DNA of 23,814 nt from an uncultured Candidatus Saccharibacteria bacterium (GTDB lineage Bacteria; Patescibacteriota; Minisyncoccia; Phycocordibacterales; GWA1-40-21), in assembly GCA_964605355.1 (NCBI GenBank), contig CAZSCE010000008.1:1-23814 (forward strand). The letters run 5' to 3'. Both the position numbers and the translations under genes were made by a program. The notes under the pieces are model-generated. The model was not told where the DNA came from and did no database searches. It worked only from the letters and a program-made list of their open reading frames with translations. Every line of letters starts with the position of its first letter. Positions within the stretch are counted from its first letter, which is position 1. Below, one piece after another: positions 1 to 12,766 of this stretch.

Positions 1-132
1 TGCAAGGTTTTTGCAAGCTTTTAGTAAGGTTTTAGGCCTAAATTATCATTGGTGTATACTTATGAGATATATAGTGAGTAAATTGGAGAATATAAGTTGT
101 TTATTAATTCAATCAAGGGTATAATACCAGAG

Positions 133-254
133 TTGACCCATACATGTTTTGTCTCGAAAGCTTTTTTATTGCTTCGTTACCCTAAAGGGGCGACTTGCCA
201 ATGAGGCTGCTTTCGAGCAAGTGTATTGGGTCAACCAGGTCGTCCCTTTAGTGT
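133..254. repeat. Two interleaved imperfect inverted repeats directly upstream of the serine recombinase start. IR1 pairs 133-161 with 209-236 and IR2 pairs 178-196 with 237-254. Candidate recombination (att/res-like) site or operator.
   Basis: Read from the sequence: ctcgaaagc (153-161) against gctttcgag (209-217) is a perfect 9 bp match and extends through TGTAT/GGGTCAA with one indel. The segment taccctaaaggggcgactt (178-196) matches the reverse complement of aggtcgtccctttagtgt (237-254) at 15 of 18 positions. The arms cross, giving the order IR1L-IR2L-IR1R-IR2R. Confidence 0.5.
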
Positions 255-263
255 ATAAAAATT

Positions 264-2042
264 ATGGAAAATGAAATAAAGAAAATTACATGGATTATAT
301 ATGCCCGCAAAAGTACAGAGTCTGAAGATAGACAAATTCAATCTATTGATGATCAGATTAATTATCAGAAAGAAACTGCCGAAAGAGAGGGATTGAATGT
401 TATTAAAATAATTAAGGAATCTAAATCTGCTAAAGAACCACACAAGCGTGATGGGTTTACTGAGTTAGTTAAACTAATAGAAGAAGGTAAGGTGAACGGT
501 GTTCTCACATGGAAAATGGACCGTCTATCTAGAAACCCGATTGATAGTGCTACTATTCAATACTTCCTTCAGAAGAAAAAATTACTTTGTGTTAAAACTG
601 CGGAGAAAAATTACCTGCCAGAAGACAATGCTTTGATTATGTCTGTAGAGAATGGAATGGCTAATCAGTATATTAGAGACTTATCAAAGAATGTTAAAAG
701 AGGTTTAACCTCTAAGGCAGAAAAGGGATGGTTTCCAAATATACCGCCAATTGGATATTTAAATTCAAAGACAAGAGAGAAAGGTTCTGAGACGATTCTA
801 GTTGATGAACAACGATTTCATTTGGTCCGTAAAATCTGGGACTTAATGCTTACAGGAACATACTCCCCTCCTAAAGTATTGGAAATTGCTTCAAATGAAT
901 GGGGTCTAAAAACTCCGCCTCGAAAAAAGCTTGGCGGTAGGCCAATATCTAGAAGCCACATTTATACTATGCTAACTAACGATTTTTACGCTGGTTACTT
1001 TCACTATGGTGGCAAAACCTATATTGGTAAGCATAAGGCCATGATAACTATGGACGAATTTGAGAAGGTCCAGGTTATTCTTGGTAAGAAAGGTAGACCA
1101 AAGACACAATTCAATGACTTCCCTTTTACTGGAATAATGAAGTGTGCTGAATGTGGTGCTAGTGTAACTGCTTCTAGAAAAATGAAACTAGTAAAAGGCA
1201 CTGGGCAGGTGGTCCCATATATTTACTACCACTGCACAAAGAGAAAGCTAAATGTTAAATGTAAATCTAGACCAGTAACACTTTGTGATATGGAGAAAAA
1301 CATTACCGATATAATTGAAAGTAATTTAATTGATCCAGAATTCTATAAGCTTGGTTTAGAAACACTCAAAGATATGCACAGTCTTGAGATTAACAAGAGA
1401 CAACAAATATACGAAACCCAACTTCGAAATGTTGAAGAGACACAAAAGAAGATAGATAGAACACTTGGTTTCTTATTAGATGGAACCATAACAAAAGAAC
1501 AATATAATTTACAGAAGAAAGAATTTGAGGATGAATTAATGAGAGAAAAACAAAAGTTAAGCGAGACTGAAGCTAGAGCTAGAAATTGGACCGAGCTTAC
1601 TGAAAATGTTTTACACTTCTCTTCTTTAGCAATGGAAGCATTGAAAGATGGTAATGTACAAATCAAAAGAGAGATACTAAGTAGTATCGGTTGGAACCAC
1701 AGGCTAGATGGCAAAAAACTGTTTGTAGATCTACATTCCTGGTTTAAAGTACTAAAAGATGGTGAAAAACGACTATTACCTGAAATCAAGGCGTTGGAAC
1801 TAGATAAAATCGTTGACCCACAACGACAAAAGGAGGCTTTCGCCTCCATTCGTCCTAGTCTGTGCGCCGGGTTGGACTCGAACCAACGTAGGCCGAAGCC
1901 GCGAAATTTACAGTCTCGTGTAATTGCCACTATACGACCGGCGCATATTTGTCACAAACACATTCTATCAGATTCTTTATATTTATCAAGAGCTTCTTAT
2001 CGTGGTAACGAATATGAATTAGGCCATGTTTCATCACTCTAG
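264..2042 (+). CDS. Large serine recombinase (resolvase/invertase catalytic domain, recombinase domain, zinc ribbon and coiled coil). The annotated end is the first stop, but the last ~60 codons run antisense through tRNA-Tyr, so the true C-terminus is uncertain.
   Basis: The N-terminal IYARKSTESEDRQ...SIDDQ is the catalytic-serine resolvase motif. Also present are GYLNSKTREKGS, a zinc-ribbon motif (CAECGASVTAS...YYHCTKRK..C) and a long Q/E/K-rich coiled coil. Length and architecture fit phage/ICE-type large serine recombinases. Confidence 0.85.
   Translation: MENEIKKITWIIYARKSTESEDRQIQSIDDQINYQKETAEREGLNVIKIIKESKSAKEPHKRDGFTELVKLIEEGKVNGVLTWKMDRLSRNPIDSATIQYFLQKKKLLCVKTAEKNYLPEDNALIMSVENGMANQYIRDLSKNVKRGLTSKAEKGWFPNIPPIGYLNSKTREKGSETILVDEQRFHLVRKIWDLMLTGTYSPPKVLEIASNEWGLKTPPRKKLGGRPISRSHIYTMLTNDFYAGYFHYGGKTYIGKHKAMITMDEFEKVQVILGKKGRPKTQFNDFPFTGIMKCAECGASVTASRKMKLVKGTGQVVPYIYYHCTKRKLNVKCKSRPVTLCDMEKNITDIIESNLIDPEFYKLGLETLKDMHSLEINKRQQIYETQLRNVEETQKKIDRTLGFLLDGTITKEQYNLQKKEFEDELMREKQKLSETEARARNWTELTENVLHFSSLAMEALKDGNVQIKREILSSIGWNHRLDGKKLFVDLHSWFKVLKDGEKRLLPEIKALELDKIVDPQRQKEAFASIRPSLCAGLDSNQRRPKPRNLQSRVIATIRPAHICHKHILSDSLYLSRASYRGNEYELGHVSSL
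1863..1944 (-). tRNA. tRNA-Tyr (anticodon GUA), type II with a long variable arm; CCA not encoded
   Basis: Minus-strand sequence gcgccgg-tc-gta-tagtggcaat-tac-a-cgaga-cuGUAaa-tttcg-c-ggc-ttcg-gcc-tac-gttgg-ttcgagt-ccaac-ccggcgc-a. It has a 7 bp acceptor stem, a 3 bp D stem, a 5 bp anticodon stem with a GUA anticodon, a UUCG-capped variable arm and a canonical T arm. Confidence 0.85.
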
Positions 2043-2571
2043 CATTAACACGCGAATCATTTCTTACATAAGGCTTGGTAAATTGAGCCTTTGGTATTTT
2101 AGTCAGCTTAGACCAAAAATTGATTATAGAAGGTGTATCTTGATTGGAATAACAATAAATGTATGCTCGAAGTTTCTTCTTATCAAAATTATATACGTCT
2201 CTAAAGGCTTTCATAAAAACCCGAACCATGACTGGATCACTATTAGCAAAATCAAATGTTCCCATTTTGCTGTTTTCATTTCCTTTAAAACCTTCACCCC
2301 AATAAAGCATCGCCAATATCGATTCTGCATAAGCCTTTCTTAATCCTTTAATACTCTTTCTTCTAAAAGTCATCTTTTTATTTTCAAAAGACCTTTTACT
2401 TGCCTCTTTAAAATCCCTCCTAGGGATATTGTATTTACGCATAGCATACGTTACTGCATCTATCGAGACATCAAAATATTTTGCCACATCAAGCATACAC
2501 TTACCCTCTTTTATATATAGGGCCTTGAGTTTAGTAATTTGATTTTTTGAAATTGCAGGCGTGTTCACCAC
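1930..2571 (-). CDS. Putative single-motif LAGLIDADG-type homing endonuclease with an N-terminal helix-turn-helix. Its stop codon lies inside the 5' end of tRNA-Tyr. The real start may be the internal Met near 2496.
   Basis: The motif ILAMLYWGEGF aligns to LAGLIDADG at the conserved L, A, L, acidic residue and G positions. It is followed by beta-rich segments (GTFDFANSD, LRAYIYCYSNQD, LINIKNLIE) typical of the I-CreI fold. The N-terminus (ITKLKALYIKEGKCMLDVAKYFDVSIDAVTYAMRKYNI) looks like an HTH. This is recalled motif similarity only. Confidence 0.45.
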   Translation of the reverse strand: MVNTPAISKNQITKLKALYIKEGKCMLDVAKYFDVSIDAVTYAMRKYNIPRRDFKEASKRSFENKKMTFRRKSIKGLRKAYAESILAMLYWGEGFKGNENSKMGTFDFANSDPVMVRVFMKAFRDVYNFDKKKLRAYIYCYSNQDTPSIINFWSKLTKIPKAQFTKPYVRNDSRVNARVMKHGLIHIRYHDKKLLINIKNLIECVCDKYAPVV

Positions 2572-2639
2572 CTAATAATAACAAAAACTACATTAGCTAG
2601 TCAAGCTAAAAAGTTCTACGTGCTACTGGCCTTGTCTTA

Positions 2640-2660
2640 CCCCTCCTTTCTTAGGAGGGG
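2640..2660 (-). terminator. GC-rich hairpin (cccctcc-tttctt-aggagggg) immediately downstream of clpB; probable transcription terminator or RNA-stabilising stem
   Basis: A perfect 8 bp inverted repeat lies 9 nt past the clpB stop. There is no strong U-tract, so terminator function is uncertain. Confidence 0.35.
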
Positions 2661-2668
2661 TCGCGTTC

Positions 2669-5341
2669 TTACGCGGGGGTGGTTTGGCGAAGCAAAGTTT
2701 GTATTTTTTTCTTCCCCTTCACCTCAAAAGTAAACTCGCCTTTTTTAAAATCAACGCTTACCACACCTCCGGCCATCACCCCACGAGAAATCATCAGGGA
2801 GGCAACAGGGTTAAGGATTTTTTCTTGAATCAAGCGCTTAAGAGGGCGGGCACCATATTGTGGATTATAACCTTCACGCGCTAAATAAGAAATAATTTCT
2901 TTACTAATTATTAATTTAATCTCTTTCTCCACCAAGCGCTTTCTAACAATATCTAATTGAATATCCACGATCTTGGCCACCGCCACTTCACTCAAAATAT
3001 CAAAAATAATAATATCATCCAAGCGGTTCAAAAATTCCGGACGGAAATTATCCTTCAGGGCCTTCATAACTTTCCCCTTCACATCTTCATACTCGGTCTT
3101 CTTAGTTTTATCCTGAGCAAAACCTATCTCCTCCATTTTATCAATATAATTAGCACCAATATTTGAAGTCATAATAATAACGGTGTTTTTAAAATTCACC
3201 GTGCGCCCTTTGGCGTCTGTCAGCCGGCCATTATCAAGCACCTGAAGTAAGATATTAAATACTTCTGGATGCGCTTTCTCAATTTCATCAAAAAGAATTA
3301 CCGAGTAGGGACGGTGCCGGACCATCTCCGTCAAATTACCCCCCTCTTCATAACCCACATAACCCGGCGGTGAACCAATCAGTTTTGAGACGGAATGACG
3401 CTCCATAAATTCTGACATATCCACGCGGATCAGAGCATTATCATCATCAAACATAAATTCTGCCAAAGCTTTGGTCAGCTCGGTTTTACCCACTCCGGTA
3501 GGTCCCAGAAAGATAAATGAGCCAATAGGCCTATTGGGGTCAGAAATACCCGCCCGAGAGCGTTTTACGGTGTCAGAAATCTTCTTAACAGCCACATCCT
3601 GGCCAATTATTCTTCTCTTAAGTTCATCATCCATCCGGCCCAATTTTTCCGCTTCTGCCTCAAGCATCCTGGTCACCGGCACTCCGGTCCAGCGGGAAAC
3701 AATATCAGCTATATCCTCCTCGCCAATTTCTTCCTTAAGCATTCGTCTGGAACTCTGTAAGTTCTTTAATCTTTTGGCTTTTATAACTAAATCTTTTTCC
3801 ATTAGTGGTATTGTGCCATAACGAATTTCCGCCGCCTTGGCCAAATCCACGCGCATTTCCGCCGCCTCGGCCTCTATCCGGGCCTGCTCCAAATTTTTCT
3901 TCAAAGTTTTTATTTCCGTAATAGTTTCCTTTTCATTTTTCCACTTCAATTCTATCTCCGCGGTTTTCTCCTTCAGATCTGCAATTTCTTTTTCAATTAT
4001 TTTTACGCGGGCCCGAGCCTTCTTCTCACCGCGCTCGGCTTCTTTTTTCAATGCCTCTTTTTCAATTTCCAAACGTAGCACTCTCCTATGTGTTTCCTCT
4101 AAAACTGGTGGCATATTTTCTAAAGAAATTTTTAACGAAGAAGAAGCCTCATCAATCAGATCCACCGCCTTATCCGGCAGGAATCTGTCAGTAATATACC
4201 TGGAGCTTAAATTTACAGAAGCCACAATAGCATCGTCAGTAATCCGAACGCCGTGATACAGTTCATATTTTTCTTTTAAGCCACGCAAAATAGCAATGGC
4301 ATCTTCCAAGGATGGCTCATTAACATACACGGTTTGGAAACGTCTGGTCAGCGCCGGATCTTTTTCTATCTTCTGATATTCTTTTATAGTAGTGGCGCCA
4401 ATAGTTCTAAATTCCCCTCGAGATAAGGCTGGTTTCAACATGTTCGAAGCATCCATGGATCCTTCTGCTGAGCCCGCCCCCACAATAGTGTGTATCTCAT
4501 CAATAAAGACAATTATTTTCCCCTCTGACCGCTCAATTTCTTTAATAATATTTTTTAAGCGCTCTTCAAATTCACCACGGTATTTAGTTCCCGCAATGAG
4601 CATCCCCATATCCAAGGAAACCAGTTCCTTATCCTTTAATGATTCTGGCACATCACCAGTGGACATCCGCAAGGCCAGGCCTTCTACAATAGCGGTTTTC
4701 CCCACGCCGGCTTCACCAATCAAGATCGGATTATTCTTAGTGCGCCTGGATAGTATTTGGATAATTCTACTTATTTCCGTATCACGGCCAATCACCGGAT
4801 CAAGTTTATTTTCCTTGGCCAATTTAGTTAAATTCCGTGTATATTTGGAAATAGCTTTATATTTTTTTATTGTTGGCGCTTCACCCACATTATTTGTTTT
4901 AAATTCTTCCAAAATACTTACTACTTTTATACGGTCAATCTTAAAACGGGTGAGCATATCTCGGGCCGGACTAGTGGTATCCAGCACACTAATAAATAAA
5001 TGCTCAGTAGAAATAAATTCATCTTTTAGCTCACGGGCTATTTTCCCGGACGCTTCTATCACTTGGGCCAGATCCGGTGTTAAATATATTTGCATGGCGG
5101 GTGAGGAAATATTTGTCCCGGGATTTATATTATCAATAACCTCCAGTAAGGAATCAGTCAGCAATACTATATCAATCTCTAATCTCTCCAAAATAGATGA
5201 AACTATACTTTCCTCTTGCATAATAAGAGCCAGGAGAAGGTGGGTAGGGTTTACGTGATTTTGTCCACGCTCAATAGCCAGCTCGTGAGCGCGCTTTATC
5301 ACTTCCTTGGCCTTGGTTGTAAAATTATTAAATGGCGGCAT
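2669..5341 (-). CDS. clpB: ATP-dependent chaperone/disaggregase ClpB (two AAA+ modules with a long coiled-coil M-domain)
   Basis: N-terminal Clp repeats are present. Walker A motifs are GEAGVGKTAIVEGLA (NBD1) and GPTGVGKTELTKALA (NBD2). A ~120-aa coiled-coil M-domain lies between them, and the C-terminal domain is also present. 890 aa. Confidence 0.92.
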   Translation of the reverse strand: MPPFNNFTTKAKEVIKRAHELAIERGQNHVNPTHLLLALIMQEESIVSSILERLEIDIVLLTDSLLEVIDNINPGTNISSPAMQIYLTPDLAQVIEASGKIARELKDEFISTEHLFISVLDTTSPARDMLTRFKIDRIKVVSILEEFKTNNVGEAPTIKKYKAISKYTRNLTKLAKENKLDPVIGRDTEISRIIQILSRRTKNNPILIGEAGVGKTAIVEGLALRMSTGDVPESLKDKELVSLDMGMLIAGTKYRGEFEERLKNIIKEIERSEGKIIVFIDEIHTIVGAGSAEGSMDASNMLKPALSRGEFRTIGATTIKEYQKIEKDPALTRRFQTVYVNEPSLEDAIAILRGLKEKYELYHGVRITDDAIVASVNLSSRYITDRFLPDKAVDLIDEASSSLKISLENMPPVLEETHRRVLRLEIEKEALKKEAERGEKKARARVKIIEKEIADLKEKTAEIELKWKNEKETITEIKTLKKNLEQARIEAEAAEMRVDLAKAAEIRYGTIPLMEKDLVIKAKRLKNLQSSRRMLKEEIGEEDIADIVSRWTGVPVTRMLEAEAEKLGRMDDELKRRIIGQDVAVKKISDTVKRSRAGISDPNRPIGSFIFLGPTGVGKTELTKALAEFMFDDDNALIRVDMSEFMERHSVSKLIGSPPGYVGYEEGGNLTEMVRHRPYSVILFDEIEKAHPEVFNILLQVLDNGRLTDAKGRTVNFKNTVIIMTSNIGANYIDKMEEIGFAQDKTKKTEYEDVKGKVMKALKDNFRPEFLNRLDDIIIFDILSEVAVAKIVDIQLDIVRKRLVEKEIKLIISKEIISYLAREGYNPQYGARPLKRLIQEKILNPVASLMISRGVMAGGVVSVDFKKGEFTFEVKGKKKIQTLLRQTTPA

Positions 5342-5404
5342 AAATATAAATTCAAATTACTACAAATTCATCATAGCAGACTGGGCGGAAAATTCAAATA
5401 GAAA

Positions 5405-8159: not shown

Positions 8160-9650
8160 ATGCCCAAAGAAAATGCCCAAAAGCAAATAGAACGTCCGCC
8201 TGTGATTTGTATCATGGGGCATATTGATCATGGTAAAAGTACCCTCCTGGACTATATTAGAAAGACCAATATTGTAGACAAAGAAGCCGGTGGTATCACC
8301 CAGAAAATTTCGGCTTATGAAGTAATTCATAATGGCAAGAAAATTACTTTTTTGGACACTCCTGGACATGAAAGCTTTGCTAAAATAAGACAACGCGGCG
8401 CTAGTGTGGCGGATATTGCGGTGCTAGTAGTTTCCGCTGAAGACGGTGTAAAGAAGCAAACCATAGAGGCCCTAAACTGTATCCGTGAAAGCCAAACGCC
8501 CATGATAGTGGCCATAAATAAAATTGATAAACCGGGCGCTGATATTGAAAAAACAAAAGTAAATTTAGCAGAAAATGAAATATATTTAGAGGGTTATGGT
8601 GGTGAAGTACCGTTTATGCCTATTTCTGCCAAGACTGGTCAGGGGGTAAATGAATTATTAGATTTGATGTTATTGGTGTCAGAGATGGCCGAGCTTAATG
8701 GCACTACTGAAAAACCAGCGGAAGGAATAGTGATTGAGGCTAATATGGATAAAAAGAAAGGAATATCCGCCACTATGATAATAAAAGACGGTACTATAAA
8801 AAGTGGTATGTTTGTGGTGTGTGGTAAAACTATTGCGCCAACCAGAATCATGGAAGATTTCCTGGGCAAAAAAATTACTGAGGCCACCTTCTCCTCCCCT
8901 ATCCGCATTATTGGTTTTGACGCCTTGCCAAAAGTGGGAAATAAATTTTTCACCTTTACAGATAAAGAGGAGGCCCTCATGGCGGTGGCAAATTTTAAAG
9001 AGATAGTTTTTCAAAAATGCGCAGCGGTGGAGGAATCAGAAAATACCGGAGTAATAAATGTTATTATAAAAGCGGATGTCACCGGATCCATAGAAGGGAT
9101 TGAGCATGAACTAGAAAAAATAAGAACAGACAGGATGAAGGTGAGGATTGTGCATTTTGGTGTGGGTGATATTACTGATAATGATATAAATATGTTGGCG
9201 GGTAAGGCTGATTCACTGGTGCTTGGATTCAACGTAAAGATTGATGCTCAGGCCATGGCCTCCGCGGAAAAATCCGGTATCCAAGTAAAAACTTTTGATA
9301 TTATTTATAAACTGACAGAATGGCTGGTGGAAATGGCGGCCTCAAAAACCCCTAAAATGAATGTGGAAGAAAAAACCGGCCGGGCCAAAGTGCTTAAATT
9401 CTTTAGTGTGGTTAAAGATAGAAATATTATTGGTGCTCGTGTGGAAGAGGGAGAAATAAGAGTGGGTGATGAAATAAAAATCATGCGCGGAGAAATAGAG
9501 GTGGGCCGTGGTAAAATTAGAGAACTGCAACAGATGAAAGAAAAAACGAGTGAGGTGCGCTCCGGCGTAGAGTTTGGCTGTCAGTTACAAAGTGCCGTGA
9601 CGCCGGCTCCGGGTGATAAATTAGAAGCTTTTACTACGGTTTTAAAATAA
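8160..9650 (+). CDS. infB: Translation initiation factor IF-2, short form without the N-terminal extension
   Basis: G-domain motifs GHIDHGKST, DTPGH and NKID are present, followed by a beta-barrel domain II and the C-terminal domains. The ~496-aa short form is typical of reduced genomes. Confidence 0.9.
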   Translation: MPKENAQKQIERPPVICIMGHIDHGKSTLLDYIRKTNIVDKEAGGITQKISAYEVIHNGKKITFLDTPGHESFAKIRQRGASVADIAVLVVSAEDGVKKQTIEALNCIRESQTPMIVAINKIDKPGADIEKTKVNLAENEIYLEGYGGEVPFMPISAKTGQGVNELLDLMLLVSEMAELNGTTEKPAEGIVIEANMDKKKGISATMIIKDGTIKSGMFVVCGKTIAPTRIMEDFLGKKITEATFSSPIRIIGFDALPKVGNKFFTFTDKEEALMAVANFKEIVFQKCAAVEESENTGVINVIIKADVTGSIEGIEHELEKIRTDRMKVRIVHFGVGDITDNDINMLAGKADSLVLGFNVKIDAQAMASAEKSGIQVKTFDIIYKLTEWLVEMAASKTPKMNVEEKTGRAKVLKFFSVVKDRNIIGARVEEGEIRVGDEIKIMRGEIEVGRGKIRELQQMKEKTSEVRSGVEFGCQLQSAVTPAPGDKLEAFTTVLK

Positions 9651-9654
9651 AATT

Positions 9655-9978
9655 ATGACCACCACATTTAAAGACGAAAAATTAAAAGATCAAATCAAGA
9701 AATGGGCCGCGGAATTCTTGCAAAGAGAGTCCACCGGTCAATCACTTATTACTGTAACTGATGTAAAGCTGGCCCGTGAAGCCAAGGAAGCCACCATACT
9801 TTTCACTGTTTTACCGGACAGTAAACAAGAAGCCGCTTTGGAATTTGCCCGCCGACAGCTGGGTGACTTTAGAGATTTTATGAATGAGAAAGTAAAAACC
9901 GGCCGGATGCCTTTCTTTCATTTTGATATTGACCGTGGGGAAAAACACCGCCAAAGGATAGATGAGATAATTAAATAA
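9655..9978 (+). CDS. rbfA: Ribosome-binding factor A
   Basis: Begins 5 nt after the infB stop, the conserved infB-rbfA order. A ~107-aa KH-like protein (ITVTDVKLAREAKEATILFTV...). Confidence 0.7.
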   Translation: MTTTFKDEKLKDQIKKWAAEFLQRESTGQSLITVTDVKLAREAKEATILFTVLPDSKQEAALEFARRQLGDFRDFMNEKVKTGRMPFFHFDIDRGEKHRQRIDEIIK

Positions 9979-10170: not shown

Positions 10171-10740
10171 ATGCCCAAAAAAAGAAAGTGGACAGAAAAT
10201 AATTTAAGACAGGCCGTCATTTCATCAACAAGTATGAGACAGGTACTTGGTAAAATTGGCCTAATTCAAGCTGGGGGAAATTATAATCAAATAAAAAAAT
10301 ATATTAAAGATCTAAAGATTAATATCACACACTTTAAAGGAAAGGGGTGGAACAAAGGAATGACTGGTATTGGTAAGCCAAGGATATGTATAGAAAATAT
10401 TTTGGTAAATAATAGTGATTTTCAAAGTTATAAATTAAAAAATAGACTTTTTGAAATTGGGCTTAAAAATAAGAAGTGCGAGGAGTGTGGCTGGAAAAAA
10501 ATATCAAAAGATGGTAGACTACCACTTGAACTAGACCATATAAATGGAGACAGCCGGGATAATAGAATTGAAAACCTTAGAATTCTTTGTCCAAATTGTC
10601 ATAGTTTAAAATTGACACATAGAGGGAAAAATAGAAAAAGCTCGGGTGGCGGAATTGGTATACGCGCAACACTTAAAATGTTGTCTGCGAAAGCGGATGC
10701 GGGTTCGACTCCCGCCCCGAGCACAGGGAGTGTAATTTAA
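10171..10740 (+). CDS. Free-standing HNH homing endonuclease (phage/Firmicutes-type). The ORF has no stop before entering tRNA-Leu(UAA), so its 3' 100 nt overlap the tRNA.
   Basis: The HNH core KCEECGW...PLELDHINGDSRDNRIENLRILCPNCHS is present. The N-terminal WTENNLRQAV...GGNYNQIKKYIKDLKINITHF module recurs in this endonuclease family. Confidence 0.85.
   Translation: MPKKRKWTENNLRQAVISSTSMRQVLGKIGLIQAGGNYNQIKKYIKDLKINITHFKGKGWNKGMTGIGKPRICIENILVNNSDFQSYKLKNRLFEIGLKNKKCEECGWKKISKDGRLPLELDHINGDSRDNRIENLRILCPNCHSLKLTHRGKNRKSSGGGIGIRATLKMLSAKADAGSTPAPSTGSVI
10640..10723 (+). tRNA. tRNA-Leu (UAA), type II
   Basis: gctcggg-tg-gcgg-aattggtat-acgc-g-caaca-cuUAAaa-tgttg-long variable arm (ctgcg aaa gcgga)-gcggg-ttcgact-cccgc-cccgagc-a. 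Confidence 0.8.
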
Positions 10741-11569: not shown

Positions 11570-12766
11570 TTATTCTAAATTAGCTAATATCCTGTTAATT
11601 AAAATAACTTTAATCCTACTTTGTGGGTCATTACTGGTCTGTAATTGTTTTATTTTATTTTTAAGACCTCCCGCTATTTGTTCATCGCATTCCTTAGCAT
11701 CCAACCCTAAATCCAAACCCCTCTTTCTCATCATATCAATCCCCTTTTCAAAAGTATTAAGAGTAGCCCCTTCTTTACTTTCAACTAGTTCACTAACATC
11801 ATATCCTACCTCGCCTTTAGCAAAACCGATAAGTCTTTTTTGTATAGCCTCAAATTGATCATCATCAAGAATACTTTCATTTCCTCTCATTCTTTCAAAA
11901 ACTACTCTATTTTTAGCTAGAGGCTTGTAATCCAAACTATCACCAGCTTGTTTCATTCTTTCCTGAGCTTTTTTATGAAATTCGTTCTTAAGAACTTCAA
12001 ATATCTCATTTCCTTTTAGACTTTCCCTAATACCCTTGATCTGCTGTAAAGTGTCAACTATAGACTTTTGATCCAGTTTTTCTCTGTCTACCTTTAACCC
12101 GGCTATAGTCTGCTGAAGGCTACTTCTTTTGGCCCTGAATTCTGTTCTAGCTTTGGTAGAAAAATGAGTTAATATACCTCTATTTTTTTCTGTATCTGAT
12201 AGTTTGGTCTCAATGTCACTTTTTAATTTGGAAAAGTTTAATTGCACATCCCTGACAAATTTAATTTTCTCATCTGTAGTTAATTTGCTGTAATCAACAC
12301 TCATTTCAAGCTGTTTAGCTGTTTCCTGATATACTCCCTCTAAAGCCTTGTTTCTTTCTGTTGCTTCTAAATAAGCAACTATCCTTTTTGAAAACTTACC
12401 TAATTCTTCAGGATTTTTAATAGCTACGCCCTCTAAACTATCCATAAAGGGTCCCTCCACCACATCGCCAAAATCAGTACTGGATTCAGTAACTATAAAT
12501 TTTTTAACCTCATTTTTAATTCCTTGTATTGTATCAAAAGTGGCAATCTTTTCTCTTAAGTAATTATCATCACTAGCGTTATCAGTGGCATCAGGATTTT
12601 TTTGCAAAAAATTTAAAAACTTTGGATCGTTTAATCTTTTTTTTATCTCTTCATCTTGCTTGGCTTTATTCTCCTTTGCTTCTGTTTCTGCTTTTTCAGA
12701 ACCACCTTCCTCTACTTCTCCACTCATATCCTTTTTTTTCTCGGGATGTCTTAATATAAATGACAT
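11570..12766 (-). CDS. Coiled-coil hypothetical protein (398 aa) of unknown function
   Basis: Long intact ORF whose translation is K/E/Q-rich and predicted mostly helical or coiled coil. There is no TM segment and no recognisable catalytic motif. Confidence 0.5.
   Translation of the reverse strand: MSFILRHPEKKKDMSGEVEEGGSEKAETEAKENKAKQDEEIKKRLNDPKFLNFLQKNPDATDNASDDNYLREKIATFDTIQGIKNEVKKFIVTESSTDFGDVVEGPFMDSLEGVAIKNPEELGKFSKRIVAYLEATERNKALEGVYQETAKQLEMSVDYSKLTTDEKIKFVRDVQLNFSKLKSDIETKLSDTEKNRGILTHFSTKARTEFRAKRSSLQQTIAGLKVDREKLDQKSIVDTLQQIKGIRESLKGNEIFEVLKNEFHKKAQERMKQAGDSLDYKPLAKNRVVFERMRGNESILDDDQFEAIQKRLIGFAKGEVGYDVSELVESKEGATLNTFEKGIDMMRKRGLDLGLDAKECDEQIAGGLKNKIKQLQTSNDPQSRIKVILINRILANLE

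Follow-up and report, generated by a model that had tools for sequence, protein, structure and literature searches.

A large serine recombinase element at the 3' end of a tRNA-Tyr gene, with evidence from relatives that integration splits the recombinase gene

How does the reading frame of a recombinase come to pass, without a stop codon, through an entire tRNA gene on the opposite strand? The question is raised by contig CAZSCE010000008.1 of assembly GCA_964605355.1 (23,814 nt, hereafter the window), near whose left end an open reading frame (ORF) for a large serine recombinase (LSR) overlaps a tRNA-Tyr gene that is itself overlapped by a 213-aa ORF. An earlier note on this DNA had proposed an integrative element bounded by the tRNA and extending leftward out of the window, with the tRNA serving as the coding 3' end of the recombinase and with the 213-aa ORF as a second, endonuclease-type gene. 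As detailed below, the element and its boundary are upheld, whereas the roles given to the tRNA and to the 213-aa ORF are not. The explanation that we strongly favour is that an LSR element integrated at the 3' terminus of tRNA-Tyr, that its recombinase gene was split in the process, and that the element brought along a replacement terminator. Loci of relatives are labelled L001 and so on, and proteins P0041 and so on. The features on which the argument rests are the following.

264..2042, + strand: LSR ORF of 592 codons, ending at TAG 2040-2042.
264..1865, + strand: conserved body of the recombinase (residues 1-534), element-borne, with Pfam matches and conservation across 30 homologues.
1866..2042, + strand: read-through tail of the same ORF (residues 535-592, 58 codons), in host DNA and unconserved.
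1863..1944, - strand: intact type II tRNA-Tyr(GTA) without encoded CCA (Rfam, 53.6 bits; ARAGORN gives 1862..1944).
1862..1866: candidate attachment-site (att) core at the element/host boundary, GTGCG on the + strand, equal to CGCAC in tRNA sense (C70-G71-C72-A73 plus one base).
1826..1847, - strand: terminator-like hairpin, GGAGGC GAAA GCCTCC then TTTT, inside the recombinase codons for EAFAS.

The recombinase ORF carries the Pfam domains Resolvase, Recombinase and Zn_ribbon_recom. In the catalytic resolvase domain (PF00239, E=2e-19), Y13, R15, K16 and S17 are invariant across the 30 homologues, as are C294, C297, C324 and C333 in the region of the recombinase domain (PF07508) and zinc ribbon (PF13408). 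A coiled coil is predicted from the AlphaFold2 (AF2) model of the homologue P0041, which shows two long helices (373-420 and 426-475). A PDB sequence search retrieved the A118 and YokA (SPbeta) serine integrases, with the window protein aligning to the A118 C-terminal domain. A catalytic serine domain, a four-cysteine zinc ribbon, a coiled coil and the short att sites described below are the hallmarks by which the protein can be classed as a large serine recombinase.

The boundary of the element can be read from a pair of occupied and empty sites. A 211-aa homologue (P0123) of the neighbouring ORF is encoded, with identical protein sequence, on three contigs (L062, L063 and L064) that are 100.000% identical over 4,044-4,425 nt through ClpB, this ORF and the whole tRNA-Tyr. 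The shared stretch ends in ...GGCGCAC (...CCCGGCGCAC, ...CCAACCCGGCGCAC). Past this point L062 is empty and continues with GCGGTAAATATATGAAAATCACCCATTATTATTTGGGTGATTTTC, the native terminator, followed by a 1,753-aa gene, TrmD and RNase HII. L063 is occupied and continues with AGACTAGGACGAATGGAGGC... (AGACTAGGACGAATGGAGGCGAAAGCCTCC...), the same sequence as in the window, into an element that encodes a recombinase 82% identical to that of the window, a 206-aa ORF and a Prim-Pol/PriCT primase. The L064 contig terminates at the exact base of divergence. The point where L062 and L063 diverge therefore sets the boundary one base after the discriminator A73, at about window position 1862. The comparison with genomes lacking the insertion, which the earlier note had suggested, thus locates the core at the tRNA 3' end, and L062 is itself an allele of the kind that should be found nowhere if the arrangement were fixed. 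A metagenome scan for the native terminator of L062, aimed at the attR junction, returned L062 itself only. To all appearances, the recombinase of the window belongs to a mobile element integrated in a Patescibacteria-type genome and running leftward off the contig.

The tRNA-Tyr is host DNA over its entire length. It is identical between the occupied and empty alleles, its body varies between the window, L001, L002 and L003, both acceptor strands having changed in a compensatory way (GCGCCGG/CCGGCGC, GCGTAGA/TCTACGC and GCGCCGA/TCGGCGC among loci), and the element-side sequence is conserved solely beyond the tRNA 3' end in the loci compared. The position of the core is further defined by L001 and L010, where both ends of the element could be located through the gene fragments described below.

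L001 right junction: ..CCATTCGTCCTTCTC / TGTGCG / TAGAGAGGGAC
L001 left junction: ..TCTTCATTTT / TGTGCG / GAGTACTGGAGGATGTTAGAACC
L010 right junction: ..CCTAGGTT / GTGCGCCG / GGTAGG
L010 left junction: ..TATCTTG / GTGCGCCG / TACTAGAAGATGTTAGAACGG

The sole sequence duplicated at both junctions is TGTGCG in L001 (6 nt) and GTGCGCCG in L010 (8 nt), and the core common to the two elements is CGCAC in tRNA sense, corresponding to window 1862-1866; the crossover dinucleotide probably falls within it. These junctions bear directly on the alternative of classical tRNA integration, where the crossover point is internal to the tRNA, the element brings its own copy of the tRNA 3' part, and the displaced fragment is left at the other end. 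Such integration is the common pattern of tRNA-linked islands in the Islander work, and a CGCAC core would allow a crossover up to 4 nt inside the tRNA. We nevertheless consider it very improbable at this locus, because the repeats at the junctions measure just 6-8 nt, no direct repeats of tRNA sequence and no longer repeats at the element ends were found in L001 and L002, the 3' strand of the acceptor varies in concert with the 5' strand of the host, and the recombinase is of the serine, not the tyrosine, type. At the far ends of L001 and L010, only the core of 6-8 nt is present in place of the restored tRNA 3' part and displaced fragment of an Islander-type island. A repeat of the tRNA-Tyr 3' segment at the far boundary, for which a search had been advised, is hence not to be expected, since relatives share only a core of 5-8 nt, as for a serine recombinase.

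As to the open frame itself, the ORF was confirmed to span all 82 nt of tRNA-Tyr antisense without a stop and to continue for 95 nt more, its tail being antisense to the tRNA and to the 3' end of the 213-aa ORF. A stop-free antisense run through about 27 G+C-rich codons is by itself unremarkable. In an alignment with 30 homologues (45-90% identity), which the earlier note had recommended for finding the true C-terminus, conservation runs to ...KEAFASIRPxLC, ending at L533-C534 (nt 1860-1865), and then collapses. Beyond the conserved Leu-Cys, read-through varies from 0 to about 60 residues: several homologues stop two codons after the Cys, and many tails read G(R/L)DSN(P/Q)R or ALPTELS, sequences that result when the T-arms and D-arms of tRNAs are translated antisense. 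This collapse and the variable, tRNA-derived tails lead us to regard the stop-free passage as incidental and the tRNA as no functional coding 3' end. True dual coding, in which the antisense of tRNA-Tyr would specify a functional extension of the recombinase, has the long open frame in its favour but is very hard to sustain when the tails translate whichever tRNA is there and the far end of the element encodes a different tail that is conserved. In the window it is established where the junction lies, that the tRNA belongs to the host and that residues 535-592 are junk; the genuine C-terminal segment lies, in relatives, at the opposite end of the element. Many deposited recombinases of the family carry 20-60 C-terminal residues of antisense-tRNA read-through, which annotation should treat as artefactual.

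The genuine C-terminus is found in a subset of close homologues (55-62% identity) that do not run into a tRNA. After Leu-Cys, these carry a conserved tail of about 30 residues, x(V/I)(L/I)(E/D)xVRTEL..(S/K)....P.IP(D/N)LS.W.. (..VLEDVRTEL..IPNLS.W..), and such uninterrupted recombinase genes are present on contigs L070 and L071. When conserved tails were used as tblastn queries on integrated loci, fragments were recovered at L001 2175-2306(+) (E=6e-11, 65% identity over 32 aa) and at L010 141-275(+) (E about 1e-6), both on the recombinase strand and about 9.4 kb left of the tRNA junction. Joining the two ends at the shared core yields an in-frame ORF in both cases, ..IRPSLC-GVLEDVRTELMKSPVTPYIPNLSMWACKVK followed by a stop in L001 and ..IRPRLC-AVLEDVRTELINSLVPIYIPNLSNWICKINDLTPHP followed by a stop in L010. 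The rejoined ORFs align with the proteins of L070 (..IRTSMC-TLIDNVRTELMKSEVVPYIPNLRAWSEKV and stop) and L071, and so does the DNA past the stop codon (TTTACCCCACACCC..ACTATAAT). The host side of the reconstruction is equally consistent: the L001 tail fragment adjoins the start of an alanine racemase gene, the same gene that directly follows tRNA-Tyr at the empty site L066, and the reconstructed attB of L001, ..CGCACAAAAAT.. (..CTACGCACAAAAATG), resembles the real L066 sequence, ..CGCACAAAAT.. (..GGCGCACAAAATATTCCC). In the AF2 model of the uninterrupted P0041 (mean pLDDT 82), the junction residue C549 stands in the middle of helix 534-561 (pLDDT 86-90), with a short helix (572-577) next, and the lost segment is therefore predicted to be structured rather than a floppy tag.

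In the relatives L001 and L010, and in these only, the sequences thus display the gene split and its in-frame reconstitution, with attP apparently inside the integrase ORF and the ORF parted by integration to opposite ends of the element. The window shows only the truncated part of the gene. Its recombinase, in the integrated state, would lack the native last ~30 codons, and the corresponding tail fragment would lie beyond position 1, at the missing left end. Two other candidates for a left end were discarded: a terminator-like hairpin in L001 (6120-6140), superseded by the tail fragment at 2211-2306, and TG-N6-AGGACGAA at L002 6635, which did not recur in other loci, yields no conserved tail when joined, and is either a chance match or an internal site.

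Two further loci carry tail-coding sequence in other contexts. L061 (10709-13700) has no recombinase beside its tRNA-Tyr, yet a tail-coding fragment (62.9% identity, E=4e-8) occurs 3 kb past the tRNA, with a TrmB-like regulator, two small ORFs and a Peptidase_S66 gene in between. Because it keeps this fragment, L061 was rejected as an empty site and is better regarded as a decayed, replaced or recombinase-less derivative of the element. In L060, a metagenome-assembled genome of Bacteroidota, the 32 terminal codons of the recombinase of a distant homologue are present in two copies on the same strand, 2.7 kb apart (9594-9689 and 12301-12396, 100% protein identity), which may represent an att-related duplication in a relative outside the Patescibacteria.

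Integration at the very end of the tRNA also affects what follows it. The terminator-like hairpin of the window stands 15 nt downstream of the tRNA-Tyr 3' end, within the last 45 nt of the element. Loci aligned on the tRNA 3' end show about 10 nt, often ..ACGAAY.., and then a hairpin with a T-run; this combination occurs at <=50 nt from the tRNA end in 25 of 37 family loci, compared with 59 of 740 control windows (8%). The stems vary by compensatory changes (GGAGGC/GCCTCC, CAGAGG/CCTCTG, CCGAGC/GCTCGG). The hairpin occupies the place of the native terminator seen at empty sites, and the one at 1826-1847 presumably ends tRNA transcription in lieu of the displaced original. With a crossover at the last tRNA bases and a new terminator supplied by the element, no long common core would be needed.

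The association with tRNA genes extends well beyond tyrosine. A profile scan of GTDB representative genomes gave 57 recombinase loci, most of them in Patescibacteria (Nomurabacteria, Paceibacteria, Staskawiczbacteria and bins labelled Saccharibacteria). In 34 of the 54 loci scanned, a tRNA in convergent orientation abuts the recombinase at the same codon with its 3' end, 1,560-1,610 nt from the recombinase start, and the adjacency is therefore systematic rather than due to chance. The tRNA identities at the 34 loci, 11 overall, are:

His, 13 loci; Tyr, 6 loci; Gln, 4 loci.
Trp, Asp and Ser, 2 loci each.
Phe, Arg, Leu, Asn and Gly, 1 locus each.

Between the window and L004, whose recombinases share 95% protein identity, the recombinase DNA is 88.9% identical and the flanking ClpB-IF2 region 73%. 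The ratio of nonsynonymous to synonymous substitution rates (dN/dS) of the recombinase is 0.019 for this pair, and 0.02-0.10 for its body against other integrated copies. The element is evidently horizontally mobile and under selection. Its cargo comprises a Toprim primase in L001 and L002, an NrS-1-like HBD + AAA_25 protein in L004, a Prim-Pol in L063, L070 and L071, and an endolysin-like PG_binding protein in L001; a scan of IMG/VR with the recombinase profile found no relatives. A domesticated, non-mobile recombinase fixed beside tRNA-Tyr, to which the recurrence of the order ClpB-tRNA-Tyr-recombinase in the window, L001, L002, L004 and L005 might point, is scarcely tenable against a perfect empty allele, the occurrence of the same clade at 11 different tRNAs, elements far less diverged than their host flanks and cargo that varies between them. 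The pair of L062 and L063 thereby opens onto a large clade that systematically occupies 11 tRNA identities, a ready-made set of integrases specific for tRNA ends, with attB sequences that can be read off. In bins of Patescibacteria, contig breaks at tRNA ends may mark such elements.

The favoured explanation, integration of an LSR element at the tRNA-Tyr 3' terminus, would proceed as follows. The LSR would recombine an attP lying within its own ORF, at about codons 533-535, with an attB made up of the tRNA acceptor/T-arm and the 3' flank. Crossover would take place within CGCAC, the last four bases of the tRNA plus one, and would therefore leave the tRNA intact without a duplicated tRNA segment. 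The recombinase gene would be split by the event: codons 1-534 would stay beside the tRNA and run into its antisense strand as far as a chance stop (592 aa here), while the native last ~30 codons and their stop would be moved to the far end of the element. In the window, the right-end sequence to which the tail-coding fragment would join is ...ATTCGTCCTAGTCTGTGC. The native tRNA terminator would be displaced, with the hairpin and T-run encoded in the recombinase 3' end as its substitute.

Several points weigh against this explanation. All data come from metagenome assemblies, and recombination, transcription and termination are deduced from sequence. The split in the window is extrapolated from relatives at 60-75% identity, because its own left end is off the contig, and the far end was reached in just two integrated loci within the 8-10 kb of flank fetched. 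Among close relatives, no circular (attP) junction was recovered; end overlaps indicating circularity were sought in the small contigs L011, L070 and L071 and none was found, which makes the episomal state of L070 and L071 putative. The crossover is placed to within the five bases CGCAC. No clear P/P' dyad symmetry was seen, and a search for an inverted copy of the 28 nt adjoining the tRNA, within 8-10 kb upstream in 24 loci, gave nothing above shuffled controls.

Serine integrases are, in textbook accounts, non-tRNA integrators. The family of the window resembles the serine integrases of phages and integrative and conjugative elements (phiC31, Bxb1, A118, SPbeta SprA/YokA) in its resolvase and recombinase domains, zinc ribbon, long coiled-coil helices, and short att sites with few bases shared at the junctions. 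It differs in targeting the tRNA 3' terminus and in having attP inside the integrase ORF, and also from A118 in an extra C-terminal region of about 100 aa beyond the aligned part. Integrases affected by their own attachment site are known among tyrosine recombinases. Those of the SSV type are split near the N-terminus, and in the intP/intX system of myxophage Mx8 attP lies within the 3' end of int, so that integration at a tRNA gene alters the C-terminus of the integrase; the Mx8 enzyme is of the tyrosine type, with a longer common core that rebuilds the tRNA. SSV-type (fusellovirus) integrases are tyrosine recombinases of archaeal viruses, whereas here a bacterial recombinase, which by its serine recombinase domains falls outside the tyrosine chemistry of SSV and Mx8, would lose only its last ~30 residues.

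In the literature, a 2020 survey described tRNA use by serine integrases as unreported, found 14 of 297 predicted cases and called for experimental proof (PMC7192596), the LSR survey by Durrant et al. nowhere uses the word tRNA in its main text (PMC10083194), and gene splitting by an internal att site has been called unique to SSV-type tyrosine integrases (PMC5861418). In our full-text searches, no publication turned up that connects serine recombinases with Patescibacteria, nor one that reports a serine integrase gene interrupted at its own attP. Splitting of an integrase gene in this manner, so far described for tyrosine recombinases, would here have a serine version. In cluster G/N/P mycobacteriophages, attP is internal to a phage gene, attB and a tRNA overlap, and integration swaps the C-terminus of the protein and changes its behaviour (PMC9262239). 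In these integration-dependent immunity phages, however, it is the repressor gene that is split, by a tyrosine integrase with a 35-bp core that rebuilds the tRNA, and for the recombinase family any functional effect of the split is presumed. Tycheposons and cryptic Prochlorococcus elements are alike in being small, in residing at tRNA genes, in combining a site-specific integrase with a primase/helicase module and, in a minority, in using a large serine recombinase. They differ in that 910 of 937 rely on a tyrosine recombinase, with partial tRNA repeats left behind, in their host phylum and in that no split integrase has been described in them. Islander-type tRNA islands have a tyrosine integrase, whereas the only recombinase here is of the serine type.

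The swap of C-termini may alter the activity of the recombinase. A wider idea, attractive but decidedly tentative, is that small replicative episomes across the Patescibacteria carry LSRs directed to tRNA 3' ends, with attP in the ORF, and that the exchange of a helix for junk constitutes a built-in switch, in which the full-length enzyme would integrate and the truncated one would be locked or redirected. Excision by large serine recombinases needs a recombination directionality factor (RDF); no recognisable RDF family was found in the elements, whose small ORFs are without annotation. If the idea were true, it would provide control of directionality or expression without, or besides, an RDF, and would be the equivalent, among serine recombinases, of the gene splitting in SSV and Mx8 and of integration-dependent immunity. 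A serine split integrase would in this sense offer a testable route to RDF-independent control.

On the other side of the tRNA are host genes.

1930..2571, - strand: 213-aa gene, resident and not part of the element, with an N-terminal helix-turn-helix (HTH) and a single, weakly LAGLIDADG-like domain.
2669..5341, - strand: ClpB, followed by a trypsin-like protease, a class-V aminotransferase, DUF4446, IF-2 and RbfA.

The 213-aa ORF ends, as had been observed, 15 nt inside the tRNA 5' end: its last five codons, A-P-V-V-stop, coincide with the first 15 nt of tRNA-Tyr. For this ORF, 296 homologues were found, about 205-215 aa long. No Pfam domain was detected in it, with no LAGLIDADG hit even at E<=10; its PHROGs matches are confined to the N-terminal HTH region, and Foldseek against the PDB returned nothing significant for its AF2 model (pLDDT 90). 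A motif, LAMLYWGEG with an invariant E93, would fit a LAGLIDADG helix, and the likeness is weak. The order ClpB-ORF-tRNA-Tyr is kept with or without a recombinase (L003, L061, L062-64, L066 and L068, the last two at 45-48% identity), the overlap of 15 nt is preserved in all of these loci except L003 (6 nt), and the translated tRNA 5' end, AP(V/I)x, forms the C-terminus of 37 of 120 homologues. The gene is absent from L001 and L002. In L004 (9673-9722), about 50 nt homologous to its 3' end stand directly upstream of an identical tRNA-Tyr; this remnant points to loss by deletion rather than ancestral absence, and the absences in L001, L002 and L004 suggest losses.

We therefore do not retain the suggestion of a second mobile endonuclease gene. 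That the ORF is a free-standing homing endonuclease of LAGLIDADG type, active at the tRNA-Tyr 5' flank, is unlikely: wherever it is present the gene stands between ClpB and tRNA-Tyr, not sporadically, and holds this position with the same overlap down to 45% identity, there is no Pfam LAGLIDADG hit or Foldseek match, and WhiA, a non-nuclease LAGLIDADG-derived protein, scores equally well. Compared with WhiA and LAGLIDADG homing endonucleases, the ORF has a single domain with an N-terminal HTH and no sequence-profile match, and is a syntenically fixed gene with its stop codon inside a tRNA. Our reading is that it encodes a resident, vertically inherited, predicted DNA-binding protein of HTH + LAGLIDADG-like type, co-transcribed with tRNA-Tyr. 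The stop codon falls at tRNA-Tyr positions 13-15 (window 1930-1944; L066 3628-3642; L068 3628-3642; L061-L063), and RNase P cleavage at the tRNA 5' end would strip it from the message, which suggests a coupling between tRNA maturation and expression of the ORF. The database protein for this ORF (P0121) has 188 aa and an internal start; homologues align from the GTG at 2571, and the public annotation is therefore probably 25 residues too short.

The region upstream of the recombinase contains three further features.

1..263, + strand: visible remainder of the element upstream of the recombinase; the contig, the longest to carry this protein, ends inside the element.
97..125, + strand: promoter-like site read from the sequence, TTGTTT (97-102), a 17-nt spacer and TATAAT (120-125).
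183..250, + strand: long conserved hairpin within the 5' leader of the recombinase, separated from the ATG by about 13 nt (RNAalifold).

Window 163-5343 aligns with the occupied locus L063, and window 1-162 does not. The region 1-263 was considered as a left-end module of the element and rejected, as it aligns poorly with the modules of L001, L002 and L004, and from 163 onward it matches the recombinase leader of L063. The site at 97..125 may act as the recombinase promoter; in an alignment, the TATAAT box is kept at the equivalent position upstream of the recombinases of distant family members, about 55 nt upstream of the leader hairpin. Of the 27 base pairs predicted in this hairpin by RNAalifold from 7 sequences, 12 show compensatory changes, and its G-U pairs are compatible with the + (sense) strand only. 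It also occurs just upstream of the recombinase start at L063 6113-6181(-), L044 124-191, L019, L032, L040, L051, L014 and L029, and has no match among Rfam families. This hairpin of about 70 nt may be a cis-regulatory RNA of the recombinase family.

A conserved noncoding module (CAGTTTCCCG .. hairpin .. CCATGCC .. GGTTTAGGCC .. TTGTCTTGA) lies mid-element in L001 (6190-6330), L002 (6650-6790) and L004 (4690-4830), upstream of the rightward replication/recombinase operon, and may be an origin or a promoter/operator region. Elsewhere in the window, a 189-aa HNH endonuclease ORF (Pfam HNH and HNH_3; 10171-10740, + strand) is located between tRNA-Cys and tRNA-Leu; towards its 3' end the frame traverses the whole of tRNA-Leu(TAA) (10640-10724, + strand) on the same strand. 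The gene is shared with L001, and L002 has just 24 nt between the two tRNAs; the ORF therefore looks like an inserted free-standing HNH gene.

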